Positions 19,192 through 52,422 of a DNA stretch of 64,000 bases are shown one piece after another. The DNA lies in contig CAZDHX010000003.1 of assembly GCA_964505425.1 (NCBI GenBank), positions 28,004 to 92,003 of the forward strand, written 5' to 3'. The notes below the pieces were generated by a model. That model ran no database searches, was not told the origin of the DNA, and worked only from the letters and a program-made list of their open reading frames with translations. This DNA comes from an uncultured Dehalococcoidales bacterium (GTDB taxonomy: Bacteria > Chloroflexota > Dehalococcoidia > Dehalococcoidales > BS750m-G39). Both the position numbers and the translations under genes were made by a program. Each line of letters begins with the position of its first letter. The first letter of the stretch is position 1.

Positions 19192-19838
19192 CTCTTTGTC
19201 CCCATAAGCCTTTCAAGCAAGAAAGCCTTAGCTTTCTCCTCCCCACCCCTCTTCAAGAGGTCAAGCATAAAATCCAGGTCGAGGGCTTCCTGCCAATCGT
19301 CTCCAGTAAGTTTAACTCCCTGGCGCTTTAGCTCAGCGCGCACCTCGCCAATTAGACGAACCAGAGAAGCGTACTCATCGCCAAAATCTTTCTCCAGCCG
19401 GGTGCGTATTTTTCGTGCCAGAGCCGGGCTTACGCCGCCGGTGGAGACGGCAATACTCAGAGCTCCCCGTCGCATATAAGAGGGTAAAATAAAATCAGAA
19501 TTTTCCGCATCATCAGCCACATTGACCAGGACCGCCTTTTCTTGAGCCTCCTTTACTACCTGCCGATTAATCTCATTACTACTGGTGGCGGCAATGGCGA
19601 TGAGCGCCCCCTGTAAATCGCCGGGCTGATAGTTTCTGCGCAGCAATTTTACCTCCCCCCTCTCAACCAGCTCATTTATTTCCTGACATGGGTCGGGGCT
19701 GATTACCTCAACACTGGCGCCGCATTCAAGAAGTGCTCTCACCTTGCGCCGGGCAACCTCTCCCCCACCGACCACTACACACCTCTTCCCCTTAATCTTG
19801 AGAAATATTGGGTAAAACTCTCGGCTCAACTTCTTCAT
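19188..19838 (-). CDS. sirC: Precorrin-2 dehydrogenase / sirohydrochlorin ferrochelatase-type protein (SirC/CysG-N/Met8 family)
   Basis: 216 aa. FLKIKGKRCVVVGGGEVARRK (Rossmann fold) and SIAVSTGGVSPALAR. Confidence 0.85.
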   Translation of the reverse strand: MKKLSREFYPIFLKIKGKRCVVVGGGEVARRKVRALLECGASVEVISPDPCQEINELVERGEVKLLRRNYQPGDLQGALIAIAATSSNEINRQVVKEAQEKAVLVNVADDAENSDFILPSYMRRGALSIAVSTGGVSPALARKIRTRLEKDFGDEYASLVRLIGEVRAELKRQGVKLTGDDWQEALDLDFMLDLLKRGGEEKAKAFLLERLMGTKR

Positions 19839-21358: not shown

Positions 21359-22725
21359 CTTCCCTCCTGACCGAATTTCTGGCAGTTGTCTATGAAACGC
21401 GCCGCCATTGAAGGCAGGCTGCCCATGTGAAGATGAATATAAGAAGCGAGCAGATTCATATTGTGGAACCCCTCACGGCGTTTGCCTTTATCAATAATAC
21501 AGTACGCCTTAGAAGCGTCAGTGTTTTTCTCCAATACGGACCAGTGGAACTCATGACCGCGCACGGTTTCCCCCTGGCGCAGGAGGGGACCATCGCCCAG
21601 AGCCTGGACTGTCCGATAGCCTAAGCTCAGGCGCGGGCTGTCAATCTGAGAGGAAAGCGGGATAGCCCCTGCCATGGGATATTCGTTGCCTTCTAAATCC
21701 CGAATACTCCTGCCGAGGTACATCAGCCCCCCGCACTCAGCATAAATTGGCATCCCGCGCCCGGCAGCAAGTTTTATTTCTTGCCTGATAGGCTTATTCT
21801 CCGCCAACTCAGCGGCATAAAGCTCAGGGAAGCCACCCCCGATATAGAGACCGGAGATATCCTGCGGCAGTTCTGCATCCTGCAGGGGGCTGAAGGGCAC
21901 AATTTCTGCCCCCCACGCCCCCAGAAGGTCTAAGCTGTCCTGATAGTAAAAGCTAAAAGCCTTGTCCCTTGCTACCGCAATCCTGGCCAGGGCGGGCTTG
22001 GGTTTTGGGGGGAATAATGCCACCTCGGCTTGCGGGACCTTTGCCTCCTCTGAGAATCGTAAAACCTGCGGTATATCAAGTGTCGCCTCACATTGTGCCA
22101 CCAAAAATTTTAGAAATTCCTTACTGGCTGGATCTTCCACCATAGGAACCAAGCCCAGATGTCTTTCCGGCAGGGACAGATTGTCGCGGCGGGGTAGATA
22201 ACCCAGCACGGCAATTTTGGTGTAATGCTCAATGGCTTCCCGGCAAAATCTGAGGTGCTCGTCGCTGCCGATGCCGTTGAGGATAACGCCGCCAAGGTTA
22301 AGAGCCGGGTCAAAAGCCTTATATCCGGCAACCATCGCCGCCAGGCTGCGCGCCCCCTTTCGGCTGTCAACCACCAGTATTACCGGCGCCCCGAGGAGTT
22401 TGGCTAACTCGGCGGTGCTGCCCTCTTCATTTATTGACGAATGCCCATCATAAAGCCCCATCACCCCCTCAATAACGGCAATGTCTTTACCGTGAACCGC
22501 CCGCCCGAAAAGCTCCAGCACAGCGTCACGGGACAAAAGCCAGGTATCCAGATTGCGAGAGGCTTCGCCGGTTACCCAGCTATGATAGCTGGGGTCAATA
22601 TAATCTGGTCCCGTCTTGAAGGGCTGCACCTTAAAACCTTTTTGGCGCAGAGCACCCATCAGCCCGGTAGCAACCGTCGTCTTGCCCACGCCGCTGGTGG
22701 TACCGGCAACAACTATCGCCCTCAT
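21355..22725 (-). CDS. cbiA: Cobyrinate a,c-diamide synthase
   Basis: 456 aa. AGTTSGVGKTT, PFKTGPDYIDP and YAECGGLMYL. Confidence 0.92.
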   Translation of the reverse strand: MRAIVVAGTTSGVGKTTVATGLMGALRQKGFKVQPFKTGPDYIDPSYHSWVTGEASRNLDTWLLSRDAVLELFGRAVHGKDIAVIEGVMGLYDGHSSINEEGSTAELAKLLGAPVILVVDSRKGARSLAAMVAGYKAFDPALNLGGVILNGIGSDEHLRFCREAIEHYTKIAVLGYLPRRDNLSLPERHLGLVPMVEDPASKEFLKFLVAQCEATLDIPQVLRFSEEAKVPQAEVALFPPKPKPALARIAVARDKAFSFYYQDSLDLLGAWGAEIVPFSPLQDAELPQDISGLYIGGGFPELYAAELAENKPIRQEIKLAAGRGMPIYAECGGLMYLGRSIRDLEGNEYPMAGAIPLSSQIDSPRLSLGYRTVQALGDGPLLRQGETVRGHEFHWSVLEKNTDASKAYCIIDKGKRREGFHNMNLLASYIHLHMGSLPSMAARFIDNCQKFGQEGR

Positions 22726-24272
22726 GACTGCTCCTGACCCAGGTCGTATTTTGCCCGGTAACCACGAGGGGTTACCATCCAGCCGCCAAGGGTAAATGTG
22801 GTTGAATTGCCGACAATGACGGTGGTGTTCATGCCAATCTCGTAGTCCAGCATGTGCTCCAAATCGGTGATTAATACCTCTTGCTCCTCCCGATAAGCAT
22901 TGGTAGCAATGCCTACCGGCGTTGATGGCGAGCGATGCTTTAAGATGATTTCCCTGGCTTTAATTAGCTGGCGCTGGCGCTTCTGGCTCTTAGGATTGTA
23001 GAGAATTATTACAAAATTTCCCTCCGCCGCCAGCTCCAGCCGGCGGCTAATTTCCTGCCACGGGACGAGGTAATCGCTGAGGCTTATGCTGACAAAATCA
23101 CCATTTATGGGCGCACCGAGCAAAGCAGCACTGGCTCCCAGCAGGGGTACGCCCGGTATCACCTCTATATCTATATCCCCCGCCTGCTCGCCAAGGATTT
23201 CGCCCACCAGCCCGGCCATGCCGTAGATGCCACTGTCGCCGCTGGAGACGAGAGATACTATTCTTCTCTCCTTAGCCAAGCTAATCGCCGTCTTCACCCG
23301 CTCCACCTCTTCTCCCATGCCGCTAGCGATAACCTTTTTATCGCCGAGGTAAGGCTCAATCAGTTTGATATAGCTCTTATAGCCAACGACTACTTCACTA
23401 TTACTGATAGCCTCTCTGGCTCTAAAGGTCATTTGCTCCGGGTCTCCGGGACCGATGCCGACCAGAAAAAGTTTTCCCCCAGCGGCAGAGCGGGCAACGG
23501 CAATGGTCACTGTCCGCCTAAAACTCACCTTGGGGATAATAAGAGAGTCGCCGCCGCTGCTCAGTAGCGCCGCCGACTCACATACCGCCGGCGTCCCCAC
23601 GTGTTTCAGCACCAGGGGCGAAGGGTGGGATTTCACCTTGCCCAGCGCTTCCTTATCAAAGTACTCTACGGGCAGGCGGTATTTGCGGGCAAATTTTGAG
23701 AGCCCGGGCTCGTTCTTCTTGATATCTATGGTGGCGATATTTCGGATGCCTTTGATAGATAGTCCATATTCTGAAAAAACCTGGCTGACGGCATTTTCTA
23801 TCTCCAGAGCTGCCGTCCCGCGGTTACAGCCGATGCCAACCACCAGATTTTGAGGGATTACCTTGCTTACCTCGGAAGCAGTGGTGACCACCGCACTAGC
23901 GCCGATAAGAGAAGCTATTTTTCCGGCCATCTCGTTAGCGCCACCCTCGTGCCCCGAGAGCAGGCTCACGCTGAATGAGCCGCCTTCATCAACCACCACC
24001 ACACCCGGGTCTTTATGCTTGTCCCTGATTTCGGTAGCTATTAACCGCACGGCGATACCCACCGCCATGATAAGCACCAGGTGCCGGTAGCGGCCGAAAA
24101 CCTCTCTGACCACTTCTCCCACCGGAGAGGAAAATGGGTATTCCCCCGGCTTTGGCTCAAGAGCAAACTTTTGCGGCAGGTAAAGGTGGCCTGCGGGAAA
24201 CCGCTTTTGTAAGCGCTGACCGAGAGCCACCCCCTTTTCGGTTATGGCGACAATGGCTATGTCCTCTTTCAC
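22722..24272 (-). CDS. cbiG/cbiH: Fused CbiG (cobalt-precorrin-5A hydrolase) / CbiH (cobalt-precorrin-3 C17-methyltransferase)
   Basis: 516 aa. The N-terminal ~270 aa are CbiG-like (GIGCNRG..., PAVCESAALL). The C-terminal part is a class III methyltransferase (LFLVGIGPGDPEQMT, SSGDSGIYGMAG). Confidence 0.88.
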   Translation of the reverse strand: MKEDIAIVAITEKGVALGQRLQKRFPAGHLYLPQKFALEPKPGEYPFSSPVGEVVREVFGRYRHLVLIMAVGIAVRLIATEIRDKHKDPGVVVVDEGGSFSVSLLSGHEGGANEMAGKIASLIGASAVVTTASEVSKVIPQNLVVGIGCNRGTAALEIENAVSQVFSEYGLSIKGIRNIATIDIKKNEPGLSKFARKYRLPVEYFDKEALGKVKSHPSPLVLKHVGTPAVCESAALLSSGGDSLIIPKVSFRRTVTIAVARSAAGGKLFLVGIGPGDPEQMTFRAREAISNSEVVVGYKSYIKLIEPYLGDKKVIASGMGEEVERVKTAISLAKERRIVSLVSSGDSGIYGMAGLVGEILGEQAGDIDIEVIPGVPLLGASAALLGAPINGDFVSISLSDYLVPWQEISRRLELAAEGNFVIILYNPKSQKRQRQLIKAREIILKHRSPSTPVGIATNAYREEQEVLITDLEHMLDYEIGMNTTVIVGNSTTFTLGGWMVTPRGYRAKYDLGQEQS

Positions 24273-25018
24273 TTTTCAAAACCTCGGCCGTATAGCTTTG
24301 AACGCTGCTTCTTTTCCTTTGCCTCCAGAAAAGCGCCCACCAGTATCAATGCCTGTTTTTTTATGCCCGATGCCCTCACCTCTGCCACCAGCTTCTTCAG
24401 GGTAGTCCGCAGCATGACCTCGTCCTGCCAGCTAGCTTTATAGATTACCGCCGCCGGGGTTTCGGGGGGATAGCCGCCGGCAAGCAGTTCAGCAACAACC
24501 TTTTCTATAAGCGAGGCGCTCAGGAAAATCGCCATGCTGGACTGGTGCCGGGCCAGGCTTTTGAGGTTTTCCAGAGCCGGCACCGGCGTCTTGCCCTCCA
24601 GGCGGGTGATGATAACCGTCTGGGAAATTTCGGGAACAGTTAGCTCCGTCTTTAAGGCGGCGGCGGCGGCGAATAGGGAGCTCACGCCGGGGATAATCTC
24701 GTAGGCTATGCCCTTACCGTCCAGCACCGCCATCTGCTCCTGGATAGCGCCGTAGATGCTCGGGTCGCCACTCTGCAGCCGGGCAACGACCTTCCCTTCC
24801 TTGACCGCATTGACTATAATCCCGGTTATCTCCTCTAGAGTGAGCGAGGCGCTTCTATAAATCTCAGCCTTCTCCGGAGCAAAGCGGCAGACCTCCGGGT
24901 TTACCAGCGAATCGGCGTAGATAATGACGTCCGCCCGCTTGATGACATTCCTTGCCCGGATAGTTAAAAGCTCCGGGTCACCGGGTCCACCACCGATAAA
25001 ATATACCTTAACCGCCAT
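24269..25018 (-). CDS. cbiF: Cobalt-precorrin-4 C11-methyltransferase
   Basis: 249 aa. VYFIGGGPGDPELLT, QSGDPSIYGA and IPGVSS. Confidence 0.9.
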   Translation of the reverse strand: MAVKVYFIGGGPGDPELLTIRARNVIKRADVIIYADSLVNPEVCRFAPEKAEIYRSASLTLEEITGIIVNAVKEGKVVARLQSGDPSIYGAIQEQMAVLDGKGIAYEIIPGVSSLFAAAAALKTELTVPEISQTVIITRLEGKTPVPALENLKSLARHQSSMAIFLSASLIEKVVAELLAGGYPPETPAAVIYKASWQDEVMLRTTLKKLVAEVRASGIKKQALILVGAFLEAKEKKQRSKLYGRGFEK

Positions 25019-25019
25019 T

Positions 25020-25742
25020 TTATTTCCGCAATATCAGGAGAGAGAAATAATCAACCTTTTTTCCTTTTAGCTGGCTGATGTCACGGACTATCTCCTCGTC
25101 CTGGGTCGTGCCTCTCCTGACATAGACGCACTTATCGGTCAGTTTTAAGTCCTCAAGAATGGCGAGGAGCTTATCAAAAACGTTATTCATCTTAATAAAA
25201 ACTACCGTCTCAAAGTTGGCTATTGTCTCCCTGATAATCTTATCTTCCCGGTTACCCGAGATTATGGCAATACGCTCGTCCTCACTGGCAAGGGGGACTA
25301 TCGCCCGGGCGGCGGCGGCATTAATCGATGATATCCCGGGGATAACCTCAACCACTACCTCGGGGTGGCTCTTTTTTACCGTCTCCAGGATATAAATAAA
25401 GGTCCCGTAGAGAAGAGGGTCACCAACGTTAACAAAGGCGCAGTCCTCCCCCTTCTCAAGATGCCGCCAGATTGTATCCGCCGCCTGCTGCCAGTAATCT
25501 TTGAGCTGCTCCTTGCCTCTCAGCATGGGAAAAACCAGCTCAACAACCTTCTGTTCTGGCTCCTTTATAAGACGGGCAACAATGGACCTTGCGTAGCTCT
25601 TGCTTTGCCTGTCTTTTAATGGCACGAAGATAACCGCCACACGGGACAGGACATTATACGCCTTCAGTGTCAAGAGCTCCGGGTCACCCGGCCCCACCCC
25701 CACCCCGTAGAGGCGGCCAATTCCCGTTTTTTTGTTACCCAT
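25020..25742 (-). CDS. cbiL: Cobalt-precorrin-2 C20-methyltransferase
   Basis: 240 aa. LYGVGVGPGDPELLTLKA, GDPLLYGTF and IPGISS. Confidence 0.88.
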   Translation of the reverse strand: MGNKKTGIGRLYGVGVGPGDPELLTLKAYNVLSRVAVIFVPLKDRQSKSYARSIVARLIKEPEQKVVELVFPMLRGKEQLKDYWQQAADTIWRHLEKGEDCAFVNVGDPLLYGTFIYILETVKKSHPEVVVEVIPGISSINAAAARAIVPLASEDERIAIISGNREDKIIRETIANFETVVFIKMNNVFDKLLAILEDLKLTDKCVYVRRGTTQDEEIVRDISQLKGKKVDYFSLLILRK

Positions 25743-25765
25743 TCAACCACGCCCTCCTCAACAAT

Positions 25766-27028
25766 TTACAATTCAAAATCAGCGGGCCAGGGGCTATGAA
25801 GGCACTCCTCATAATAGCGGGCGGGCAGGCTAAGCATGGACGCCTTGGTCATCAAGGATGCCCAGTACATACCACGCCGGGTAACCTCAACATGTGTGGG
25901 GTGTTCTTCGATGAGATTCAGTAGCTTGAGCATAAGCATGAACCTCCCCATTGCCCGCTCCATCTTGACCCCGAAGCGCTTTTCAAATTCGGACTTCTCC
26001 ACCCTCAGCCGATATAGTCCCATCATGAACCACCGCCTCATCACCCGGTCTGGCGGCGTGATTGTCCCCGTAGCTATAGGTAAACCTGCTTCCACCCTTT
26101 TTATATACTCCCTGAGGGAGAAGGTATTGACATAGAACAAGCCCCCGATTTTGGTATAGGCGCTAATCCCCACCCCGATATTCTCGTCGCGGGTGCAGGT
26201 GACATACTGCGCCCCACCCCCATTGGTAAACTCCCAGCAGGTATCCTGCTTGTAGCCGTTAGCAGTAAGGAAATCAATAACGGTATAGAACATCTCCCGT
26301 TCTAAAGACGAGGGCGGGGTAGTGAGCCGCCCCTCCTGGACATCGCGATACCAGCGGGTATAGGGGAAGAGCATAAGAGGATAATACGCAATTTGATGGG
26401 CACCGGTCTTAGCCGCCACCTCCAGGTCACCCAGCAGGCTGGGGATTTGCTGCCGGGGTAGGCTATGCATCAGGTCAATGCTGACGTAGAACCCCTCACT
26501 GAGCAAAAGCTCTATCGCCTTGAGCACCGCCCTGGCATCATAGCCCCGCCCCATACCCCTCAGGACTTCAGCGTCAAAGGACTGCACCCCCAGGCTGATT
26601 TTGGTGACGCCGGCCTGCTTCACTGCCCGGCACATCTCAGCGTTTATATCCTCAGAGTTTGCCTCAAAGCCGACCTCGCCCTCCATCTCAAACCTGGACC
26701 TTACAAAATCCATAATCTCAACTATCCCCTCCCAGGTGAGGCTGGGGGTGCCGCCGCCAAAATAGACATCGCCTATCTTGATTTTCCCCAGTTTGTCACG
26801 GTAGGTCTGGATTTCTTTTTTCACCGCCTCAATATAAGGGGCGACCTTGCTCGGGGAATAGCGCAGGCTATGAAAACAACAGTAGGAGCAAAGATGGCGG
26901 CAGAAGGGCAGGTGAATATACCAGCCAATGCCATCCAGGGCCGGCGGAAATTCTGGCTCAATCGGGGAGAACCTCGTCCCTCTAAGCCCCCTCTTTATCA
27001 TTGACGGCGCCATTCTCTCTGCAATCAA
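25766..27028 (-). CDS. HemN/HemW-like radical-SAM protein (coproporphyrinogen dehydrogenase family) embedded in the cbi operon
   Basis: 420 aa. YIHLPFCRHLCSYCCF (CxxxCxxC), GGGTPS and a HemN_C-like tail. The TTG start lies 1 nt after the cbiET stop, and the stop lies 23 nt before the cbiL start. Confidence 0.8.
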   Translation of the reverse strand: MIAERMAPSMIKRGLRGTRFSPIEPEFPPALDGIGWYIHLPFCRHLCSYCCFHSLRYSPSKVAPYIEAVKKEIQTYRDKLGKIKIGDVYFGGGTPSLTWEGIVEIMDFVRSRFEMEGEVGFEANSEDINAEMCRAVKQAGVTKISLGVQSFDAEVLRGMGRGYDARAVLKAIELLLSEGFYVSIDLMHSLPRQQIPSLLGDLEVAAKTGAHQIAYYPLMLFPYTRWYRDVQEGRLTTPPSSLEREMFYTVIDFLTANGYKQDTCWEFTNGGGAQYVTCTRDENIGVGISAYTKIGGLFYVNTFSLREYIKRVEAGLPIATGTITPPDRVMRRWFMMGLYRLRVEKSEFEKRFGVKMERAMGRFMLMLKLLNLIEEHPTHVEVTRRGMYWASLMTKASMLSLPARYYEECLHSPWPADFEL

Positions 27029-27029
27029 G

Positions 27030-28250
27030 TTATTCCTCCTTCTTTACTCCGCTGACGACAAAGACCGGATTCAAGGTTTCGAAGCGGGTAAGCTCCATAA
27101 CACCAGTACTGCGGGCTATATTTACCAGGGTTATATCAGGCACAAAGCCCCTGGCTTTAAGGGCGTCGACGGCGGCGCTCAGGTTTTCCAGGGCAACGAT
27201 GTTCATAACAATGCGCCCGCCGGGCTTTAGCCTTCGGTTGACCAGGTCCAGTATCTCCTTAACTCTCCCCCCGCTACCCCCGATAAAGACGGCGGTGGGG
27301 TCGGGCAAACTGTTTAAACCATCCGGGGCAAAGGTCTTGACCACCTCAACATTAGAGGCATTAAATTTTCGGATATTTTTTCTGATTATGGCTACATCTT
27401 TTTCGTTCTTTTCTATAGCGTAGATATGCCCTTTTCTGACAAGAAAGGAGGCTTCAATAGATACCGCCCCCGAGCCGGCGCCAATATCCCAGACGATACT
27501 GTTTTCAGTAAGCGCCAGCTTGGCAAGGCTTATTGACCTCACCTCCTGCTTGGTGATAAGCCCCTCCCGGCGGCGATGGAAGTTTTCTTCGGGAATCCCC
27601 ATTATTCGCTGAGGTCTCGGCTTGGATTTCTCCCTTAATAAAATCAGGACGTTGAGTGGAGAAAACTTCATCTTGACCAAGCCGCGTAAATCGGTCTTGA
27701 CGACCTTTTCTTCTTTGCTGCCAAGGTCCTGGCAGACATAAGCCCAGTAGCCGTCAACGCCGTGTTCCAGCAACACCCTGGCAATAGCCGCCGGGGTATG
27801 CTTATTATCAGTAAAAATGCCGATTTTAGCATTTAACCCCACCACCCCGACAATCTCCGCGATGGGCCTGGAGTGGACGCTGACAAAGACGGCGTCCTCC
27901 CAGCTTTCTTTAATGCGGGCAAAGGCCAGCTGCATGGCGCTTACGTTGGGTATTATGTCAATAACGCTCTTGCCCAACTTAGCCGTCAGATAGCCGGCTA
28001 TGCCGTAAAAATTGGGTTCACCGGAAGCCAGCACGACCATTCGTTTCCGCCCCAGGTTTCTCTCGATTAAATCGGCTACTTCAGCTAGGTTATTTTTGAT
28101 AGTTATTTTCTCCCCGCTCAGCGAGGGAAACATCCGAATTAATCGCCTACCACCGAAGACAATCTCCGCCCGGTTTAGCAGGCGGCGTGCTTCCGGCAAC
28201 AAGCTTCCCTCGGGTGCCACCCCAATAATATGGACCCTATGTCTTGACAT
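27030..28250 (-). CDS. cbiE/cbiT: Fused CbiE/CbiT (cobalt-precorrin-7 C5-methyltransferase / cobalt-precorrin-6B C15-methyltransferase, decarboxylating)
   Basis: The N-terminal half is CbiE-like (HIIGVAPEG, ASGEPNFYG). The C-terminal half is CbiT-like (VWDIGAGSGAVSIE). The ATG at 28250 with a GGGAGGG Shine-Dalgarno is preferred over the track start at 28277, which overlaps cbiD. Confidence 0.88.
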   Translation of the reverse strand: MSRHRVHIIGVAPEGSLLPEARRLLNRAEIVFGGRRLIRMFPSLSGEKITIKNNLAEVADLIERNLGRKRMVVLASGEPNFYGIAGYLTAKLGKSVIDIIPNVSAMQLAFARIKESWEDAVFVSVHSRPIAEIVGVVGLNAKIGIFTDNKHTPAAIARVLLEHGVDGYWAYVCQDLGSKEEKVVKTDLRGLVKMKFSPLNVLILLREKSKPRPQRIMGIPEENFHRRREGLITKQEVRSISLAKLALTENSIVWDIGAGSGAVSIEASFLVRKGHIYAIEKNEKDVAIIRKNIRKFNASNVEVVKTFAPDGLNSLPDPTAVFIGGSGGRVKEILDLVNRRLKPGGRIVMNIVALENLSAAVDALKARGFVPDITLVNIARSTGVMELTRFETLNPVFVVSGVKKEE

Positions 28251-29328
28251 CAGCCCTCCCCAGAATAATGCCGTCATAGCTGCTCATGATACATTCCACC
28301 TCAAGTTTTCCCCCCACCTTATCACGGCACTTTTCTGCCGCCAGCAGACAGAGCTTATTACAGAATCTTTGGCTATGTTCCGGGGGGAGCATCTTGCGGA
28401 GGTGATTGGCGGTGACGGCTCCTCTCAAGGACCGGACTACCTTCTCGGGCACACCACAACCTGCCGCCACTCCCGCCAGGAAACCGATGTCCACCCTGGA
28501 ATCGCTGACATTGGTATACATGTGTCCGGCGGCAAGCTTGCTCAGCTTACCCATCATGCCCCAGATGGTTACTTTCTCAAAAGACCTCCGGGCGCATTGC
28601 TCAAGTGAGTAGCCGATAAAATCTCCGGCTTGAACGAAACATTCTTCAGCCAGTTTCAGCTCGCCCTGGGCGAATTTCTCGCTTCTCCTGCCCGTGGTCA
28701 ATACTACCTGGCGGCAGCCGCAAGCTACGGCTACATCCAACGACTGAAAGAGGCAAGCCTTATAGGCGCTAACCGAATAGGGGATGACAACCCCGGTAGT
28801 GCCCAAAATTGAGATGCCACCGATTATCCCCAGACGCGGATTCAGCGTTCTTCTGGCTAACCCTTCTCCTTCGGCTACCGAGATTACTACTTCAATGCCC
28901 TTGCCGTCATTTTCTGGCATTACCTCTCTCACCGAGCTCTCTATCATCCGGCGGGGCACGGGGTTAATCGCCGCCATACCAATCGGTATTTCCAGCCCGG
29001 GCTTGGTAATTATCCCCACTCCCTCCCCTCCCCCGATATCAATCCCCGGCTTATCCTTCCAGGAGACCTTAGCCCAGATTTCCGCCCCATGGGTGACATC
29101 CGGGTCGTCACCGGCGTCTTTTATCACCGAGCACACAGCCTGGCTTTTTCCGAAGGTGCAGTGGCTGATTTTGAATAGAGCCTGTCGTCCGGCAGGGAGA
29201 GAAACCTGAACTTGCTTGACCGCCTCCTGCTTGAGCAGAGCGATAGTCGCTGCCTGCGCTGCGGCGGCAGCACAGGCTCCGGTGGTATAGCCGGAGCGCA
29301 GAGACCGTTTATCTCGTCTCACCGTCAT
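28237..29328 (-). CDS. cbiD: Cobalt-precorrin-5B C1-methyltransferase
   Basis: 363 aa. LRSGYTTGACAAAAA, KDAGDDPDVTHG and GTTGVVIPYS. Confidence 0.9.
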   Translation of the reverse strand: MTVRRDKRSLRSGYTTGACAAAAAQAATIALLKQEAVKQVQVSLPAGRQALFKISHCTFGKSQAVCSVIKDAGDDPDVTHGAEIWAKVSWKDKPGIDIGGGEGVGIITKPGLEIPIGMAAINPVPRRMIESSVREVMPENDGKGIEVVISVAEGEGLARRTLNPRLGIIGGISILGTTGVVIPYSVSAYKACLFQSLDVAVACGCRQVVLTTGRRSEKFAQGELKLAEECFVQAGDFIGYSLEQCARRSFEKVTIWGMMGKLSKLAAGHMYTNVSDSRVDIGFLAGVAAGCGVPEKVVRSLRGAVTANHLRKMLPPEHSQRFCNKLCLLAAEKCRDKVGGKLEVECIMSSYDGIILGRADVKT

Positions 29329-30170
29329 ACGGCTTTCCTCCCCATCACTCTCAATAGCTCCCGCCTCGCCTCACCAATAGTCAGCGGCATCTCCGGGAAA
29401 TCTATTCCCTCTCTCTTTTGCAGAATCTCAACGAGATGGGCTACCCGTGGCAGCCTTAGCTCTGCTTCCCTAATCATATCGGTATCGGTAAACACCTCCG
29501 CTGGCGGTCCTTCGGTGACTATCTTACCCTTACTCATAATAGCGACGCGGTCGGAGAATAGAGGCACCAGCTCAACATCATGGGTAGCCATTATCATGGT
29601 CGTTCCCCTCTCCTGGTTCAGTTTCCGGAGTAAACGCATAATGGAACTGGCACCCTTGGGGTCCAGACCGCTGGTCGGTTCATCCAATAAAATTATTTCT
29701 GGCTCCATCGCCAGGACGCCGGCAATAGCCACCCGCCTTTTCTGCCCGAAGCTCAAGGTGTGAATGGCTCGGTCGGGAAGCTCGGCGGCACCCACCAATT
29801 TCAAGGCTTCGGCGGTTCTCCGCGTCACCTCAGCCGGCTCTAGCCCCAGGTTCACCGCGCCAAAGGCGACATCCTGCCCCACGGTAGCGCCGAAAAGCTG
29901 GTCGTTAGGGTCTTGAAAGACCATCCCCACCCGCCGGAAAATCTCTTCGTCTCTGAAGAAACGAAGCTCCCTGCCGTCCAGAAATACCTTGCCCAAGGAC
30001 GGTTTTAGTAAGCCGTTTAGCTGTTTCAGTAGCGTTGTCTTGCCGCAACCGTTAGCCCCCAGAAGGGCTAAGAATTCGCCGCCCCCTAACTCCAGGTTGA
30101 TTTTACCTAGAGCCGGGGTAAAACCGTCATAGCTAAAGGACAAGGCTTCGGTCTTTATCATGCTCTCCAC
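29325..30170 (-). CDS. cbiO: ECF cobalt transporter ATPase
   Basis: 281 aa. Walker A GANGCGKTT, signature LSFGQKRRVAIAG and Walker B ILLDEPTSGLD. Confidence 0.9.
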   Translation of the reverse strand: MESMIKTEALSFSYDGFTPALGKINLELGGGEFLALLGANGCGKTTLLKQLNGLLKPSLGKVFLDGRELRFFRDEEIFRRVGMVFQDPNDQLFGATVGQDVAFGAVNLGLEPAEVTRRTAEALKLVGAAELPDRAIHTLSFGQKRRVAIAGVLAMEPEIILLDEPTSGLDPKGASSIMRLLRKLNQERGTTMIMATHDVELVPLFSDRVAIMSKGKIVTEGPPAEVFTDTDMIREAELRLPRVAHLVEILQKREGIDFPEMPLTIGEARRELLRVMGRKAV

Positions 30171-30940
30171 TGCCCGATAAGATAGAGAATTGCCAGCACG
30201 GCGGTTAAACCAACGGCAGCCATAAAATCCTTCCGGCCAAAGTGTCCGGCATAATCAACGGCCAGAGCGCCGCTGTAACCTCGCGCTATCATCGCCTCAA
30301 AGACCCTCTCCGCCCGGTCGTAGGCTCGTAAGACCAAAATACCGCCCAGCGTGCCCACCGACCTCATACCCCGCCGCCAGTTGTCGTAGCCCAAGCGTAC
30401 CCTCTGGGCATCTTTTACGGCTATCGCCTCCTCGATAAGGACAAAGATGTAGCGATAAATCAGCAGCGACAGCTCAACAAAGACTTTAGGCAACCGGAAC
30501 CAGCGAGCCGCCCTGAGTAGCCGGTGGGCTGGCGTGGACATACCCAAGAACAGAATTAGTGACATGCCACCGATGACGCGGCACATGATTAAGAGACCAT
30601 GAGCCAGACCCTCTTCGTAGCCCACCAGGTCGAGTCCCAAAAAGGGGACGGCAAACAAAGGGGTGGTGCCATAAAAGAATAGCTGCGTAATCAGCACCAC
30701 TGCCGCCATGACCAGAGGCATAATCAGCCTCAGCATAAGTAGCCTTGGCGGAATTCTGATAGCCAGCAGGGTAGCCAGGCAAAAAACAGCGATGGCTATC
30801 GGCGTATAGATGCTCGGCGATAAGAGATTAATCACCAGGGCAACCACGGTAAAGGCTGTCTTGGTGCGTGCCTCTATCCCGGTCACCCAGTTCTCTCTGT
30901 GGGCGAAGGCATCGGAAAAAATACCGCTTTTATCAAACAT
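30158..30940 (-). CDS. cbiQ: ECF cobalt transporter T component
   Basis: 260 aa polytopic membrane protein in the cbiMNQO position. It carries a CbiQ-like RA..R motif region (AERVFEAMIARGY). Confidence 0.85.
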   Translation of the reverse strand: MFDKSGIFSDAFAHRENWVTGIEARTKTAFTVVALVINLLSPSIYTPIAIAVFCLATLLAIRIPPRLLMLRLIMPLVMAAVVLITQLFFYGTTPLFAVPFLGLDLVGYEEGLAHGLLIMCRVIGGMSLILFLGMSTPAHRLLRAARWFRLPKVFVELSLLIYRYIFVLIEEAIAVKDAQRVRLGYDNWRRGMRSVGTLGGILVLRAYDRAERVFEAMIARGYSGALAVDYAGHFGRKDFMAAVGLTAVLAILYLIGQWRA

Positions 30941-30960
30941 CTATATCAGCCAGCAGCGCT

Positions 30961-31260
30961 TCACCTCCCCGCTTTTTCAGCAATAAGCCTCCTCCAGTAG
31001 TAGCCGGTAACAAATCCACCCACTGCCCCACCGAAGGCGAAAACAAAGAGCAACAGGTCACCTTTATCGGTGTTGATGAAAGGCTCGCTTGGTTCCCTGC
31101 CGGCATCAGTGGCATATTTTTCAATGACGCTAACGTCCACCCCTCCCCAGGGACCCTCCTCTCCCTCAGGTACCTGCTTGGACAGGGCAAGCCACCCCCA
31201 GACGGCTAGAGCCACCAAAACGACCACGATAACAGTGGTGATTATCCTGGAACTTTTCAT
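30961..31260 (-). CDS. cbiN: Cobalt transport protein CbiN
   Basis: 99 aa with two TM helices flanking a soluble loop, in the position between cbiM and cbiQ. Confidence 0.8.
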   Translation of the reverse strand: MKSSRIITTVIVVVLVALAVWGWLALSKQVPEGEEGPWGGVDVSVIEKYATDAGREPSEPFINTDKGDLLLFVFAFGGAVGGFVTGYYWRRLIAEKAGR

Positions 31261-32051
31261 TAGTCACCTCCTTTTACCAGACTGGGCACTGGCTTGAAAG
31301 CTCCGGGGATTATGCGGGTTAATAACTCCGGCCGGCGGTGATAGACGAATGTTACCACTCCCCCGGTGAATAACCCCTCCAGAATGCCCAGTGGCAACTG
31401 AGTGGGAGCGAAGGCAACGGCAATGGCACCGAACATGCTCCATAATGAGCCAGTACCGTGTAAAGCCGAGGCTAGCTCAAAAGAGGTTGTAGCGTATGTT
31501 GCCCAGTCACCCAAGAGTCCGGCGGCGAAGGCAGCCACAAATATGGGGGCGTTGAACCTCCGGAACAAAACAAAGACACCAAAGCCAACGAAAGAACCAA
31601 CCAGAGCCATAGAAACGATATTAGCCCCCCAGGTAGTTATACCGCCGTGTGCCAGAAACAGGGCCTGGATAAGAAGGGCCAGCGCCCCGAGAACAGTGCT
31701 GATAAACGGCCCCACCAGGATTGCCCCCAGGGGGGTGCCGCAGGGGTGGGAACAGCTTCCCGAAACCGGGACCGGGATGGGGAAAACGGAAATTAGGAAT
31801 ATCAGCGCCCCGGCGATGCCGAGCAGAGGCAGCAGCCCTCTTACCTCTCTGGTCTTCCTTCTGATGATGATAATGCCAATGACCACAAATACGGCGGCTA
31901 TCACGTACCATATCGCTGCCCAGCTGGCGGGTAGAATCCCCTCAGCGATGTGCATGGCATATGCCGGGGTGGGGCACAATAACAGCCCGATGGCAAGCAC
32001 CAGTGCCAAGGCAATATGAGTCCTGAACCAGCTATAACCTTTATTGAGCAT
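31260..32051 (-). CDS. cbiM: Cobalt ECF S component CbiM, with a cleavable signal peptide exposing MHIAEG
   Basis: 263 aa. ...LLLCPTPAYA|MHIAEGILP: an AxA cleavage site sits directly before the metal-binding Met-His N-terminus typical of CbiM/NikM. Confidence 0.88.
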   Translation of the reverse strand: MLNKGYSWFRTHIALALVLAIGLLLCPTPAYAMHIAEGILPASWAAIWYVIAAVFVVIGIIIIRRKTREVRGLLPLLGIAGALIFLISVFPIPVPVSGSCSHPCGTPLGAILVGPFISTVLGALALLIQALFLAHGGITTWGANIVSMALVGSFVGFGVFVLFRRFNAPIFVAAFAAGLLGDWATYATTSFELASALHGTGSLWSMFGAIAVAFAPTQLPLGILEGLFTGGVVTFVYHRRPELLTRIIPGAFKPVPSLVKGGD

Positions 32052-33072
32052 TCAACCTACCTCCAGCAATCTTTAATAGAGTATTAACCGTAGCCACCGC
32101 CAGGGCGCTGCCGCCCCGAGTTCCGGCTACGGTGACATATGGTATATCCCGTTTCATTAATTCATCCTTTGATTCCTTCGCCTGCACAAAACCGACCGGC
32201 ATCCCCACAACAAGAGCCGGTCTTACCCCGTCATTATCAATCAACTCCAGCAGAGCCAGGAGGGCGGTGGGGGCATTGCCGATGGCGACTATGGCACTAT
32301 TAAGCCTCGCCCCCAGATGACGCATTGCCGCCGCGGCCCGGGTGGTATTCGGTTTTAGCCCCTCCGCTTCATCCATGGCACAAGAAACAGAACAGCCGCA
32401 GGCTTCAGCCAGACGCCGATTAATGCCGGCAGCTACCATCCGAACGTCGGTAAAGATAGGACTGCCTTTAGCTATGGCGCTTATGCCACCGGAGACCGCC
32501 GAGGAGCTGAACCTTACCAAGGGAACAAGCTGGGGATCGCCACCGGCATGGACAACATGCTTTACTACCATTCGCTCCTCTGCGGAGATTTTTAGCGAGG
32601 GAGGTAAAAGTCCTTCCACAATCTCCATACTCCTCTGCTCAATGTCCTGGGGGGAAGCCAGCGAAAGATGGGCATCCGGCAAAAGCTCCGGAGCCGCTTC
32701 CTGAATGCGCCTTGCCACGCGAGCTATTAGAAGTTCATCGTTACCGAGGGTATTGGCAGCAACAAATTGCACCTTTGGATAAATGCCCCTGAGCTTCTCA
32801 ATAAGCTGAGGGATGTCCTCGGTGATGTGCCGCCCTCTAAAAAGAAAGTAGGGCACGATTACTATCCGCTCCACCCCCCACCCTGCCAGAGACGCCACCG
32901 CTTCCTCAAAAGTGGGGCGATTAAACTGGAGTGCCGCCCCGATAACCTCAACGCCGGGGGCTAGGAGGGGCTTTACCCCTTCGCTGAGCCTCTTCAAGGT
33001 CTCAGTGACCTCGACACTACCCCGTTCACCACGACTGCCGTGGCATAAGATAACTATCCCCGTCTGCGGCAT
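32041..33072 (-). CDS. cbiX/cbiC: Fused small CbiX (sirohydrochlorin cobaltochelatase) / CbiC (cobalt-precorrin-8 methylmutase)
   Basis: The N-terminal ~120 aa are GIVILCHGSRG...VIVPYFLFRGRHITEDIP (CbiX-S type). The C-terminal ~210 aa are CbiC-like (HAGGDP, IFTDVRMV, IGNAPTAL, VVGMPVGFV). ATG 33072 is preferred because the track start at 33141 lies on the -35 hexamer. Confidence 0.85.
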   Translation of the reverse strand: MPQTGIVILCHGSRGERGSVEVTETLKRLSEGVKPLLAPGVEVIGAALQFNRPTFEEAVASLAGWGVERIVIVPYFLFRGRHITEDIPQLIEKLRGIYPKVQFVAANTLGNDELLIARVARRIQEAAPELLPDAHLSLASPQDIEQRSMEIVEGLLPPSLKISAEERMVVKHVVHAGGDPQLVPLVRFSSSAVSGGISAIAKGSPIFTDVRMVAAGINRRLAEACGCSVSCAMDEAEGLKPNTTRAAAAMRHLGARLNSAIVAIGNAPTALLALLELIDNDGVRPALVVGMPVGFVQAKESKDELMKRDIPYVTVAGTRGGSALAVATVNTLLKIAGGRLNAQ

Positions 33073-33098
33073 ATTACACAACCCGACCTGATTAAAAA

Positions 33099-33141
33099 CA
33101 AGTCTGCTTGTTAGTATACAAGCGCCGATTTTACCTGTCAA
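33099..33141 (-). promoter_or_regulatory. cbi/hem super-operon promoter (minus-strand TTGACA-N17-TATACT) with the overlapping half-site array CTTGT-N6-ACAAG-N4-CTTGT
   Basis: -35 is plus-strand TGTCAA at 33136-33141 and -10 is plus-strand AGTATA at 33113-33118. Inverted pentamers at 33119-33123, 33108-33112 and 33099-33103 span the -10 and the TSS. The leader to ATG 33072 is only ~30 nt. Confidence 0.6.
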
Positions 33142-33970: not shown

Positions 33971-34897
33971 CTAGCCTCTCCTATTCTTTATGGTACAGGA
34001 AACGGAACACTGGTCGCACTCAGTAGTGCATGGCTCAACATGAATAGTGATATGAGTGCGGGGCAATTTCCTCTTTATATCTCGTTCCAGGTGGTCGCAG
34101 ACGCGGTGGGCTTCCGCCACACTCTCATGCTTGGGCATTACCAGGTGCAGGTCAACGTAGCGATAGCTCCCCGCCTTGCGAGTGCGCAGGTCGTGAAAGG
34201 CAACCATACGATAATTATACTTCATAATACAAGCCCTTATAACCGTCTCCTCCGCCTCAGGCAACTTGACGTCAATCAGCCCCCCAAACGAGCCTTTCAG
34301 CACATCATAACCTGTTTTCATAATAAGCAAGGCTACTGCCAGGGCGATAACAGGGTCTAGAATATTAAGCCCGGTAAAGCGTACGGCTAACAGCCCTCCT
34401 AGCACCGCCGCCGCGGAATAGACATCAACGGCAATATTTTGCGCGTTTGCCCGCAAGGCTATTGAGTCCACTGCCTTGGCTACCTTGGACAGGTAGCGGG
34501 AAAGAAAGATGCTGGCTATCATCGAGACCAGCATTACCGCTATACCGGCTTCAGCCAGCTCCACCACTGCTCCGGTTATTATTCTCTGTACCGCCGAATA
34601 AATAATCAAGCCGCCGACAACTAAAATCAGGCCCGCCTGCGCCACAGCGGCGATGTTCTCCACCTTGCCATGACCAAAGGGGTGCTCCCTATCGGCAGGC
34701 TTGGTGGCTATTCTAATAGCCACGAAGGTAACGACCACGGCAAGCAAATCAAGGGAGCTATCCACCGCCTGCGCTAGTATGCTGATGCTGCCGGTGATAA
34801 CCGCCACCGCCACCTTGAGCACTATCAGCCCAATTACCACGATGAGCATGAGCTTAACGGCGCTCTTTTGCTCGGAGTCTCCCCTTTTCCTGGCCAT
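33971..34897 (-). CDS. czcD: Cation diffusion facilitator (CzcD/FieF-type) metal exporter
   Basis: Six TM helices with the ...SLDLL... and HxxxD-type motif region, then a cytoplasmic domain (VDLHLVMP...HITIHVEP). ATG 34897 (MARKRGD, AGGAG Shine-Dalgarno) is preferred. The track start at 34942 lies inside the riboswitch terminator stem. Confidence 0.88.
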   Translation of the reverse strand: MARKRGDSEQKSAVKLMLIVVIGLIVLKVAVAVITGSISILAQAVDSSLDLLAVVVTFVAIRIATKPADREHPFGHGKVENIAAVAQAGLILVVGGLIIYSAVQRIITGAVVELAEAGIAVMLVSMIASIFLSRYLSKVAKAVDSIALRANAQNIAVDVYSAAAVLGGLLAVRFTGLNILDPVIALAVALLIMKTGYDVLKGSFGGLIDVKLPEAEETVIRACIMKYNYRMVAFHDLRTRKAGSYRYVDLHLVMPKHESVAEAHRVCDHLERDIKRKLPRTHITIHVEPCTTECDQCSVSCTIKNRRG

Positions 34898-34915
34898 CTC
34901 ACTCCTGCCTAAGAC

Positions 34916-35002
34916 GAAAAAACCCGTGGTGCCTGGTCCCACGGGTTCAAGTCCCGCTGCTGCAAGTTCAGCCCGGTTCTATAAAGACCTGTTCCAGGCT
35001 CT
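34916..35002 (-). promoter_or_regulatory. NiCo (czcD-motif) riboswitch with an intrinsic-terminator expression platform
   Basis: The minus strand reads AAGAGCCUGGAACAGGUCUUUAUAGAACCGGGCUGAACUUGCAGCAGCGGGACUUGAACCCGUGGGACCAGGCACCACGGGUUUUUU. The conserved ACAG / CGGGCUGAAC / GCAG / CGGGAC / CGUGGGAC blocks match my recollection of the NiCo consensus. P1 is CCUGG/CCAGG. The terminator stem ACCCGUGG/CCACGGGU plus U6 shares its 5' arm with the aptamer. A CDF exporter lies downstream. Confidence 0.7.
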
Positions 35003-35008
35003 TTAAAA

Positions 35009-46415: not shown

Positions 46416-51050
<4,635 letters not shown>

Positions 51051-51113
51051 GTTGACATTGCCAGCCAACTATGCTAAAAATAACAGTAATATGGTCAAAT
51101 ACGAGGTGGATAA

Positions 51114-52289
51114 ATGAAATTAGTAGTTGTGGGTCTAGGACAATGCGGCGGTAGAATCGCCGATGAGTTTCTACGCCTAAACAGGAGAGCACGCAGCCAG
51201 CGAGGGATTGAGATAATTACCGGCGCCTTTGCCGTAAACACCGATGCCGCTGATTTAACCGGGCTTAAATACATAAGCCCTGATTACCAGCATAGAATCC
51301 TCATCGGAGGTCGGCGGACGGGCGGTCATGGGGTCGGCAAAATCAATGAGCTGGGGGCTGAGGTCGCCAAAGAGGACTCGGACAAGATTGTAGACGCCAT
51401 AAGAACCGCCAAGCGCTTCTTTGAGACCGATGCCTTCTTCATTATCGCCGGTGTTGCCGGCGGTACTGGCTCGGGGGCATTGCCAATAGTCACCCAGATG
51501 ATAAGAGACCGCTATGGCGATAAGCCGGCTTATGCCCTGGCTGTCCTCCCCTTCGGTCATGAAGAGCAAACCGAGGAAAGAACTATCTATAATGCCGCCA
51601 CCTGCCTTAAGTCCCTCTATAAAGTGGCTGATGCCGTCTTCCTCATTGACAATCAAAGGTATGTGAGGAAGGACTTCTCGCTTAGAAATAATATGGATAA
51701 GATAAATGCATTAATCGTTGACCAATTCTACAACATGCTTTGCGCCGGCGAGGAGACAAAACAAAAGCATATCGGGGCAAAGATGCTTGATGCCGGAGAC
51801 ATTATTCAGAGCCTGGCTGGCTGGACAACGATAGGCTATGGCAAAGCAATGGTACCCGCCTTCAATTGGTTCCACCTCTTCTCAAAGGATTTTAGAACTA
51901 AGAGCACCGAGACCCACCGCGGGATTCAAGCCATGGATGAAGCCATCAGCGAGCTCTCGCTTAAATGCAACCCTGCTGATTCAGGCAGGGCACTATACCT
52001 CGTCTCAGGGCCACCAAAGGAAATGAATATGGACCTGATTAAGGAACTGGCAGACTACCTCAGGGGGATGAGTCCGCAGGCAGTAATAAGGAACGGCGAC
52101 TATCCCCGGGAAAAGGGCGCCATTGATGTAACCGTAGTCCTGTCTGAGTTCAACGCCCTGGACAAGATAAGGGGCTACTTTGAAAGAGCCACCGATGTTA
52201 TCCACGGTCTCAAACAAAGACGTGGCGAGTTTGAGGACAAACTTAAAGAAGTAGACGAGATAGCCAAGGACCTTCCCTCACTACTATAA
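51114..52289 (+). CDS. cetZ: CetZ-like tubulin/FtsZ-superfamily GTPase
   Basis: 391 aa. GLGQCGGRIADEF (T1), AVNTDAADLTGL, GHGVGKINELGAEVAKED, DAFFIIAGVAGGTGSGALP (T4 GGTGSG signature), LIDNQRY, MLDAGDIIQSL (T7-like), LVSGPP and NGDYP. These align block by block with Haloferax CetZ1 as I recall it. Confidence 0.8.
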   Translation: MKLVVVGLGQCGGRIADEFLRLNRRARSQRGIEIITGAFAVNTDAADLTGLKYISPDYQHRILIGGRRTGGHGVGKINELGAEVAKEDSDKIVDAIRTAKRFFETDAFFIIAGVAGGTGSGALPIVTQMIRDRYGDKPAYALAVLPFGHEEQTEERTIYNAATCLKSLYKVADAVFLIDNQRYVRKDFSLRNNMDKINALIVDQFYNMLCAGEETKQKHIGAKMLDAGDIIQSLAGWTTIGYGKAMVPAFNWFHLFSKDFRTKSTETHRGIQAMDEAISELSLKCNPADSGRALYLVSGPPKEMNMDLIKELADYLRGMSPQAVIRNGDYPREKGAIDVTVVLSEFNALDKIRGYFERATDVIHGLKQRRGEFEDKLKEVDEIAKDLPSLL

Positions 52290-52311
52290 GGTCAGGTATC
52301 CAGGCCTGTTT

Positions 52312-52353
52312 GCCGGCTTTACTAGCCAGCTAGTAAAGCCGGCATTTTTATTT
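52312..52353 (+). terminator. Rho-independent terminator after the cetZ-like gene
   Basis: Perfect 14-bp stem GCCGGCTTTACTAG / CTAGTAAAGCCGGC, loop CCAG, followed by ATTTTTATTT. Confidence 0.85.
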
Positions 52354-52393: not shown

Positions 52394-52422
52394 TTAGCAA
52401 AGAGGCCCATATAGGGTATAAT
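52394..52422 (+). promoter_or_regulatory. dnaX promoter (TTAGCA-N17-TATAAT), near-leaderless
   Basis: TATAAT at 52417-52422 and ATG at 52433. Confidence 0.5.

Follow-up and report, generated by a model that had tools for sequence, protein, structure and literature searches.

A conserved CetZ-like gene of the tubulin/FtsZ superfamily in a Dehalococcoidales bacterium (Chloroflexota)

Introduction

Papers on the CetZ family of the tubulin/FtsZ superfamily still describe it as an archaea-specific cytoskeleton of cell shape and motility (including PMC9856176), with the CetZ proteins of Thermococcales marking the boundary of the canonical clade (Brown and Duggin 2023, PMC9856176). CetZ-like proteins of Dehalococcoidia have already been mentioned in print (Santana-Molina et al. 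2023, PMC9871819). Here we describe a gene of this kind, located at positions 51114–52289 (+) of a 64,000-nucleotide stretch of contig CAZDHX010000003.1 (hereafter the window) from a metagenome-assembled genome (MAG) of an uncultured Dehalococcoidales bacterium. The gene joins an already noted, functionally unstudied group, some members of which the JGI and NCBI pipelines already label 'tubulin-like protein CetZ', and it adds no new kind of system. What the present analysis adds is that this group is large, comprises several paralogues, is syntenic and independently transcribed, and is under purifying selection.

The likely hosts of such genes have an unusual envelope. In Dehalococcoidales and in the SAR202 lineage, the dcw/peptidoglycan genes were reportedly lost in a common ancestor, mraZ-mraW-ftsA-ftsZ were kept, and the walls are of the S-layer type (PMC10608941, PMC11994032); SAR202 bacteria also carry the archaellum genes flaI and flaH (PMC11994032). 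In Dehalococcoides mccartyi BTF08, FtsZ (btf_0595) is expressed alongside a distinct 'FtsZ/Tubulin GTPase' (btf_0551), and the two were less abundant in co-cultures where the disc-shaped cells turned barrel-shaped (PMC8163811). The classical MreB/peptidoglycan model leaves unexplained how shape is set in S-layer bacteria that lack peptidoglycan, and a CetZ-like polymer is an obvious candidate for this task.

Family assignment of the protein

The open reading frame (ORF) starts with ATG and encodes a protein of 391 amino acids. In Pfam, its product matches the Tubulin domain (PF00091; E = 6.8e-36, 124.8 bits) over residues 3–182 and the CetZ_C domain (PF21011; E = 2.6e-19, 69.8 bits against a cut-off of 21.6 bits) over residues 189–360, which cover positions 3–179 of the 180 positions of the profile. 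Neither FtsZ_C nor Tubulin_C of Pfam was matched at E values up to 1, and the NCBIfam FtsZ equivalog (TIGR00065) was failed, with 78.1 bits in the N-domain only against a cut-off of 295.2 bits. The profile searches that an earlier note on this DNA had proposed as a check thus place the protein outside FtsZ and the known bacterial tubulin families.

Comparison with all PDB sequences by phmmer gave the same picture. The three best matches were 4b46 (Haloferax volcanii CetZ1; 2.1e-48), with an alignment that spans residues 1–378, 4b45 (CetZ2 of H. volcanii; 1.2e-35) and 3zid (CetZ of Methanosaeta thermophila; 3.3e-18). The best FtsZ followed at 2.8e-14, the FtsZ entries being aligned over the N-domain only, and BtubA and the tubulins reached E values of 1e-6 to 1e-7 (about 5e-7 for BtubA) over only about 100 residues. 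No TubZ or PhuZ appeared among the 60 PDB sequence matches listed or among the top 50 matches of the fold comparison described below. The blocks that the earlier note had matched to CetZ1 (AVNT..ADL.GL, GHGVG..NELGAE, DAF..GGTGSG, DN, LAG..GY, GPP and GDYP) do align to 4b46. The protein is about 32% identical to CetZ1, 26% to Escherichia coli FtsZ and 23% to a Bacillus plasmid TubZ-like protein, and its nearest archaeal relatives are 31–34% identical. To Bacillus TubZ-like genes, a tblastn search against plasmids gave no more than partial matches, at 23–28% identity.

Because the Pfam, NCBIfam, PDB sequence and fold comparisons agree, the protein is best classed as CetZ-like rather than as FtsZ, TubZ or BtubA/B, and we regard it as almost certain that the window encodes a CetZ-like GTPase in a bacterium. 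Other assignments were considered and rejected. Canonical FtsZ was discarded on the failed equivalog score, the missing FtsZ_C domain and the neighbouring genes, gap and dnaX; TubZ/PhuZ, on the chromosomal housekeeping setting and a position outside the TubZ-like branch of the tree; and BtubA/B or a eukaryote-like tubulin, on the missing Tubulin_C domain and the presence in the window of a single gene of 391 codons, as opposed to paired A and B proteins of about 430–470 amino acids. An FtsZ-like Tubulin_2 protein, for which there was a weak partial Pfam match of 37 bits, was also considered and then dropped.

Conserved motifs and predicted structure

All elements of the tubulin/FtsZ GTPase motif set listed in the earlier note can be read in the translation. 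By alignment, these are the T1 nucleotide-binding loop GLGQCGG (residues 7–13; 51132–51152, +), the T4 tubulin signature GVAGGTGSG (residues 113–121; 51450–51476, +), which aligns with the GGGTGSG motif of CetZ, and the T7 loop LDAGD (residues 225–229; 51786–51800, +), which aligns with VDSSE of CetZ1 and VDFAD of E. coli FtsZ. Among 55 family members drawn from three subfamilies, G7, G9, Q10 and G12 of T1, A115 to G121 of T4, and D226, A227 and D229 of T7 are invariant. An RNGDYP motif is found at residues 326–331. The motifs are of mixed character: GQxGG and GGTGSG are CetZ/tubulin-like, and the second acidic residue of T7 is Asp, as in FtsZ, where CetZ have Glu. Judging from the literature on FtsZ, tubulin and CetZ, the T7 segment would serve as the inter-subunit GTPase-activating loop.

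Two further elements have counterparts in CetZ1, where the hydrophobic M-loop tip and the tail at the C-terminus are required for rod formation and a LESLF-to-AESGG mutant is non-functional (bioRxiv 10.1101/2024.04.08.588506). The M-loop region of the window protein (residues ~246–262; 51849–51899, +) contains an aromatic and hydrophobic cluster, PAFNWFHLF, that aligns with the LLSRL tip of CetZ1; residues 252–258 form a low-confidence loop in the structural model. At the C-terminus, the hydrophobic peptide DLPSLL (residues 386–391; 52269–52286, +) is conserved by alignment, with P388 and L390 invariant in the same 55 sequences and a family consensus end of (D/G)(I/L)P(S/T)L(L). By analogy with CetZ1, the M-loop may be functional and the tail may bind a partner.

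The AlphaFold2 model built on an alignment of the three subfamilies (A3) has a predicted local distance difference test (pLDDT) score of 83.9 and a predicted template modelling (pTM) score of 0.85, and shows a two-domain tubulin fold with a disordered five-residue tail; an earlier run on a shallow alignment (A2), all members of which are at least 74% identical, gave a pLDDT of 56.9 and was not used. In the secondary structure of the model, a long C-terminal helix (residues 350–384; 52161–52265, +) resembles H11/H12 of CetZ and tubulin and lies partly within the CetZ_C match (to residue 360) and the 4b46 alignment (to residue 378). Foldseek against PDB ranked 4b46, 4b45 and 3zid A/B first to fourth, with target-normalised TM scores of 0.81–0.91, FtsZ coming next at about 1e-24. 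The nearest folds are hence the CetZ crystal structures with which the earlier note had proposed to compare a predicted structure.

The T7 and tail residues bear on the possibility that the protein is a second division-ring component, which would cooperate or co-assemble with FtsZ/FtsA at mid-cell of a wall-less cell, in the way that FtsZ2 stands beside FtsZ1 in archaea without pseudomurein. DLPSLL resembles DIPAFL, the C-terminal peptide by which FtsZ docks FtsA/ZipA, and the FtsZ-like Asp in T7 points the same way. Likewise, the abundances of the tubulin GTPase and of FtsZ in D. mccartyi shifted in parallel, and both were treated there as proteins of division (PMC8163811); wall-less archaea need two FtsZ paralogues (PMC9856176). 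However, the sequence, domain and fold comparisons side with CetZ and not with FtsZ1/FtsZ2, haloarchaeal CetZ, which are non-division proteins, have a similar hydrophobic tail (ELESLF), and the gene is unlinked to ftsA-ftsZ in the inspected loci. We consider a division-ring function unlikely, though it is the main rival. A non-division, CetZ-like role in shape or envelope organisation is the most economical one because FtsZ and FtsA are reported to be retained for division.

Family size, subfamilies and phylogenetic position

The 120 closest database proteins are 390–391 amino acids long and 74–98% identical to the window protein; names among them include Dehalococcoidales bacterium, Chloroflexi bacterium RBG_13 and 'Tubulin-like protein CetZ [subsurface metagenome]'. 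A phmmer search of 1.84 billion representatives of 50%-identity clusters retrieved 3183 relatives at E values up to 1e-3 and 83 at values up to 1e-30. A scan of genome contigs, which used one protein query and so reached close relatives only, gave 12 loci (L001–L012), 11 of them labelled as Dehalococcoidales or Dehalococcoidia MAGs. The exception, L001 (CAVTZP010000003.1), is titled 'uncultured delta proteobacterium', yet it shares the pth...recR gene order at 78–88% protein identity and looks taxonomically mislabelled.

At least three subfamilies can be distinguished, and members of all three are CetZ_C-positive according to precomputed Pfam assignments. The window type has orthologues in L001–L007. 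A subfamily of about 54% identity (L008–L012) sits in a different gene context. The third, of about 39% identity and 418–424 amino acids, is named after the SAR202 cluster, Dehalococcoidia or Chloroflexi bacterium and is surrounded by ordinary bacterial genes, on contigs that reach 4.7 Mb. Paralogues also occur side by side. In L002 (4764–5933) and L003 (4758–5927), a tandem copy (41–43% identical), with intact T4 and T7 motifs and a tail ending in ...LPTLD, lies between gap and the main copy. L007 holds two copies, whose identities to the window protein are 66% and 68%; the copy of about 66% is at 1974–3149. Pairs of apparently GTPase-competent paralogues raise the possibility of heteropolymers.

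Several neighbours of these relatives are worth recording. Two Ala/Glu/Lys-rich repetitive ORFs of 174 and 658 amino acids, apparently coiled-coil proteins, lie between the two CetZ-like copies of L007 (3221–3745 and 3805–5781, –); this was seen at a single locus. Coiled-coil genes beside archaeal CetZ-like genes have been remarked on by Santana-Molina et al. Directly upstream of the gene in the 54% subfamily lies one for an IPT/TIG-domain protein of 572–622 amino acids (L010, 719–2587; L012, 4140–5858), with a 1151-amino-acid protein that has no Pfam match encoded further upstream in L012 (454–3909); two PHO4 transporter genes and a PhoU-like gene follow downstream. A location at the cell surface is conceivable for the large proteins encoded upstream.

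A neighbour-joining tree was built from 94 sequences over 375 columns, with E. coli FtsZ as the root; CetZ1, CetZ2, four CetZ from haloarchaeal megaplasmids and the TubZ-like protein of Bacillus were included. In this simple distance tree, which has no outgroups from archaeal FtsZ1/FtsZ2, the window protein belongs to a clade of 35 tips with a bootstrap value of 72/100. This clade holds every sequence named as Chloroflexota; most of its tips are nameless, so the split between bacteria and archaea rests on a named minority. Outside the clade, the names are all of archaea (Halogeometricum, Thermococci, Nitrososphaerales, Euryarchaeota), except for E. coli FtsZ and the TubZ-like protein of Bacillus, which served as references. 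The clade lies beside, and not inside, the group that contains haloarchaeal CetZ1/2, Thermococci and Nitrososphaerales, and the deeper nodes have values of only 13–21.

The earlier note had read the gene as an archaeal CetZ transferred into a bacterium. The CetZ-like nature of the protein and the bacterial host both stand, but the named bacterial sequences form a clade of their own, apart from all named archaeal CetZ. Because this clade is separate and the deep nodes are weak, 'archaeal CetZ-type' and 'cross-domain transfer', in whichever direction, stay tentative; the bacterial clade may be nested within archaeal CetZ or be sister to it. A singular transfer into one genome is contradicted by the several paralogues in Dehalococcoidales and the related SAR202 subfamily. 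The family also bears on the history of the tubulin superfamily, in which transfer from archaea to bacteria and ancient sharing are the alternatives. As far as named sequences show, the group appears to be confined to two lineages of Dehalococcoidia without a murein wall, Dehalococcoidales and SAR202; this link between CetZ-like genes and murein-less lineages is a correlation that is worth a proper test.

Host, gene neighbourhood and conservation

Upstream of the CetZ-like gene, the window encodes an NAD-dependent DNA ligase, Pth, a SLOG protein, enolase, a protein of 274 amino acids without assigned function, an HGD-D-like protein and Gap; downstream lie dnaX, ybaB, recR and recO. The remainder of the window carries genes for haem and anaerobic cobalamin biosynthesis, trehalose synthesis, FeoB/Fur, tRNA synthetases and ABC transporters. 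With LigA, Pth, DnaX, YbaB, RecR and RecO flanking the gene and with named relatives from Dehalococcoidales, the host is a bacterium, represented by a Dehalococcoidales MAG of the Chloroflexota, in agreement with the all-bacterial neighbourhood that had been described before.

The order (eno – 274-aa gene – HGD-D-like –) gap – CetZ-like gene – dnaX – ybaB – recR is kept in L001–L007 as far as the contigs reach, and these are seven independent assemblies from different studies. The ratio of nonsynonymous to synonymous substitution rates (dN/dS) against the orthologues is 0.09–0.18, in the same range as for gap. At 0.506, the guanine-plus-cytosine (GC) content of the gene is the lowest of the 37 genes of the window (mean 0.545, z = –1.9) and sits at the edge of their continuous range of 0.506–0.575. 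With an intact ORF, a dN/dS of about 0.1 and synteny in seven assemblies, the gene is an old, intact resident under purifying selection, neither a fresh insertion, as the earlier note had also maintained, nor a unique transfer, nor a pseudogene.

The low GC content would also fit an artefact, either an archaeal fragment mis-joined during assembly or contamination, or a decaying recent insertion. Against this, the gap/gene/dnaX junctions recur in the seven independent assemblies, promoter and terminator are conserved (see below), dN/dS and the continuous GC range are those just given, and the nearest archaeal proteins are only 31–34% identical, so that such an origin is effectively refuted; the recurrence of the gene order in the seven assemblies shows that the contig is neither chimeric nor archaeal.

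The 274-amino-acid protein is encoded by a Cys-rich ORF (48198–49022, +) that has no Pfam match and overlaps eno upstream and the HGD-D-like gene downstream by 4 nucleotides each; L001, L003 and L005 have it in the equivalent place, at 69–87% identity. In the D. mccartyi proteome, an abundant hypothetical protein, btf_0548, is encoded three genes from the tubulin-like gene (PMC8163811) and might correspond to the 274-amino-acid ORF.

Transcription and translation signals

The gene appears to be a transcription unit of its own, as had been proposed from the TTGACA box, the GAGGTGG site and the terminator. A sigma-70-type promoter-like site (51052–51081, +) consists of TTGACA (51052–51057), an 18-nucleotide spacer and AAAAAT (or a 17-nucleotide spacer and TAAAAA), with 10 of 12 consensus matches, and begins 2 nucleotides past the gap stop codon. 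The Shine-Dalgarno sequence GAGGTGG (51103–51109, +) lies 4 nucleotides 5' of the ATG. An intrinsic terminator (52311–52353, +) comprises a 15-bp stem, given as 14 bp in the earlier note, and a 4-nucleotide loop (52311–52344), followed by TTTTTATTT. There is no terminator between gap and the promoter-like site, so read-through from gap in addition to the gene's own promoter is possible.

Comparison of the window with the orthologous intergenic regions of L001–L007, eight loci in all, showed that these signals are maintained. The –35 element TTGACA is invariant across the eight loci; the –10 element, TA[AC]AAT, holds the same position and spacing in L001–L007 while the sequence of the spacer drifts; and the Shine-Dalgarno sequence GAGGTG is kept in 8/8 loci (as GGGGTG in L006). 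The terminator hairpin is kept 3' of the orthologue in L001–L006 with compensatory substitutions in the stem, for example GCCGGCTTTACTAG/CTAGTAAAGCCGGC in the window as opposed to GCCAGCTTCGCTAG/CTAGCGAAGCTGGC in L005. Because the –35 and –10 elements, the Shine-Dalgarno sequence and the terminator stem are conserved across related loci, the signals go beyond chance. The gene is thus predicted from its sequence context to have its own sigma-70-type promoter and a strong intrinsic terminator.

A separate promoter-like site for dnaX, TTAGCA-17-TATAAT (52394–52422, +), is also conserved. The block around it (...ATATAGGGTATAATA...) is nearly identical in L001–L006, which is unusually strong conservation for intergenic DNA.

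The fixed place of the gene beside dnaX-ybaB-recR, conserved in seven loci, might suggest a DNA-segregation motor of the TubZ/PhuZ type, and both the GQCGG sequence of T1, common to the Bacillus plasmid TubZ-like protein, and the weak partial Tubulin_2 match would fit such a motor. Its promoter and terminator are, however, separate from dnaX, the neighbours differ altogether in the other subfamilies, neither a TubR-like gene nor centromere repeats were seen, and the gene is chromosomal; together with the 23% identity to the TubZ-like protein and the lack of TubZ/PhuZ among the 60 PDB matches listed and the top 50 folds, this makes a segregation function very improbable.

Possible function

The explanation that we favour overall, with slightly better than even confidence, is that the protein forms a GTP-dependent, CetZ-like, membrane-proximal cytoskeleton with a non-division role in an S-layer-bounded cell without peptidoglycan. 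In this model, subunits would bind GTP and polymerise head to tail, and the T7 loop of one subunit (D226/D229) would complete the GTPase site of its neighbour, so that dynamic filaments or sheets form. Lateral, membrane or partner contacts would be made by the hydrophobic M-loop tip and the (D/G)(I/L)P(S/T)L tail, as in Haloferax CetZ1, and the polymer would shape the cell or position envelope or surface machinery by analogy with archaeal CetZ. The first part, a GTP-dependent polymer, is predicted with good confidence from the conserved motifs; the second, a role in shape or envelope organisation, is a tentative proposal drawn from the archaeal analogy, to which we give somewhat less than even weight.

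Several points weigh against this explanation. The bacterial clade is separate from the functionally studied CetZ, and the identity to CetZ1 is about 32%, so the transfer of function by analogy is weak. We found no functional study of the bacterial CetZ-like clade in the literature. No conserved partner gene is common to the three gene contexts inspected (the window type, the 54% type of L010 and L012, and the SAR202 type of loci L020–L022), and the context consequently gives no functional hint. As an orthologue of the window gene, btf_0551 is putative, and in the D. mccartyi proteome FtsZ shifted in the same direction, so that a shape role and a division role are not separated by those data.

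A related proposal is that the protein does not determine shape but acts as a scaffold that positions machinery of the surface or of motility, such as type IV pili, archaellum-like filaments or chemosensory arrays. Work on haloarchaea and Thermococcales has linked CetZ1 and CetZ2 to roles of this sort, the archaellum genes flaI and flaH are present in SAR202 (PMC11994032), D. mccartyi has a pilus cluster (PMC8163811), and the TIG-domain and 1151-amino-acid proteins encoded upstream in the 54% subfamily may be surface proteins. No pilus or archaellum genes adjoin the gene in the window, in L001–L007 or in L020–L022, however, and this quite unlikely alternative is compatible with the non-division cytoskeleton that we favour rather than exclusive of it.

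The favoured cytoskeletal role can be extended into a broader and rather doubtful evolutionary scenario. The ancestor that Dehalococcoidales and SAR202 share may have fixed CetZ-like genes along with the loss of the murein sacculus, as part of an archaeal-style envelope toolkit that would also include the S-layer wall, archaellum genes (SAR202) and HalB-type bactofilins (Chloroflexota), and the protein would then be the cytoskeleton that sets the shape of a wall-less bacterium, such as the disc of Dehalococcoides. The scenario is compatible with the data because the named bacterial relatives are all Dehalococcoidia, SAR202 or Chloroflexi and fall in one clade, and because the literature puts the loss of peptidoglycan in the same ancestor (PMC10608941). 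If it is true, the description of the CetZ family as 'archaea-specific' would need revising.

Other features of the window

A large block on the reverse strand (13260–33141, –) encodes enzymes of haem and cobalamin biosynthesis. It includes genes for a HemL-like aminotransferase, HemB, a CobA-HemD fusion, HemC, HemA and a sirohaem-synthase-like protein, along with cobQ, cbiA, a cbiG-methylase fusion, tetrapyrrole methylases, a radical SAM protein, cbiD, the cobalt transport genes cbiO/Q/M and a CbiX-CbiC fusion. Finding a de novo anaerobic pathway of cobalamin biosynthesis in a Dehalococcoidales genome is noteworthy, since cultured Dehalococcoides are auxotrophic for corrinoids. A NiCo riboswitch (34932–35006, –; 38.3 bits, gathering score 37) lies directly 5' of a cation-efflux gene of the CzcD type (33971–34942) and adjoins the cluster for cobalt uptake and cobalamin biosynthesis.

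A second module (8295–13210, –) is devoted to compatible solutes and encodes a TreT-like glycosyltransferase, a fusion of an MscS-type channel with DUF5752, a trehalose-phosphatase and a trehalose-6-phosphate synthase. Next to it are genes for Fur and FeoB (5748–8246) and two GH130 phosphorylase-like genes (1654–4851).

Comparison with known systems

The bacterial tubulin-superfamily GTPases TubZ/PhuZ and BtubA/B share with the window protein their place in the superfamily and, in the Bacillus plasmid TubZ-like protein, a T1 loop of the GQCGG type. They differ in that the window gene is chromosomal and solitary, without TubR or a partner tubulin. Canonical FtsZ shares the superfamily fold, the GTPase loops, Asp at the second acidic position of T7 and a C-terminal peptide, DIPAFL, of which the tail of the window protein is reminiscent. 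It differs in the FtsZ_C domain, which the window protein lacks, in PDB alignments restricted to the N-domain and in an identity of 26% (E. coli FtsZ); moreover, the order keeps a separate ftsA-ftsZ pair (PMC10608941).

The likeness to CetZ1, CetZ2 and the CetZ of M. thermophila is more extensive and comprises the GTPase domain, CetZ_C, the terminal helix and the RxGDYP, GPP and GHGVG..NELGAE motifs. Also shared, although as a likeness of kind and not of sequence, are two traits of the CetZ1 subfamily: the long M-loop, whose tip is hydrophobic, and the hydrophobic tail at the C-terminus. The differences are spread over the protein: T1 is GQCGG in the window protein, as opposed to GQAGG in archaeal CetZ and GGGGG in E. 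coli FtsZ; the T5 region is one residue longer, with LPFxHEEx in place of LPxxDEG; T7 is LDAGD rather than VDSSE; and the tail KDLPSLL is not acidic, unlike the ELESLF, ELDSLF and LENLF tails of haloarchaeal CetZ. The host is a bacterium, whereas the CetZ family has been described as archaea-specific, a label that concerns where the family occurs and is not a molecular trait. The window gene offers a clean example of a possible sister family of CetZ as a conserved, selected and independently transcribed gene in a whole bacterial lineage.

Among bacterial proteins, btf_0551 of D. mccartyi BTF08 (PMC8163811), a putative orthologue, probably represents a close system. The closest described group is that of the 'CetZ-like' proteins of Dehalococcoidia (Santana-Molina et al. 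2023, Front Microbiol, PMC9871819), which come from the same host class and have a C-terminus that matches a CetZ_C hidden Markov model, and they are not FtsZ. They were reported as 'sparse paraphyletic groups'; in the present analysis, thousands of metagenomic sequences make up at least three subfamilies, and those with bacterial names fall in one neighbour-joining clade.

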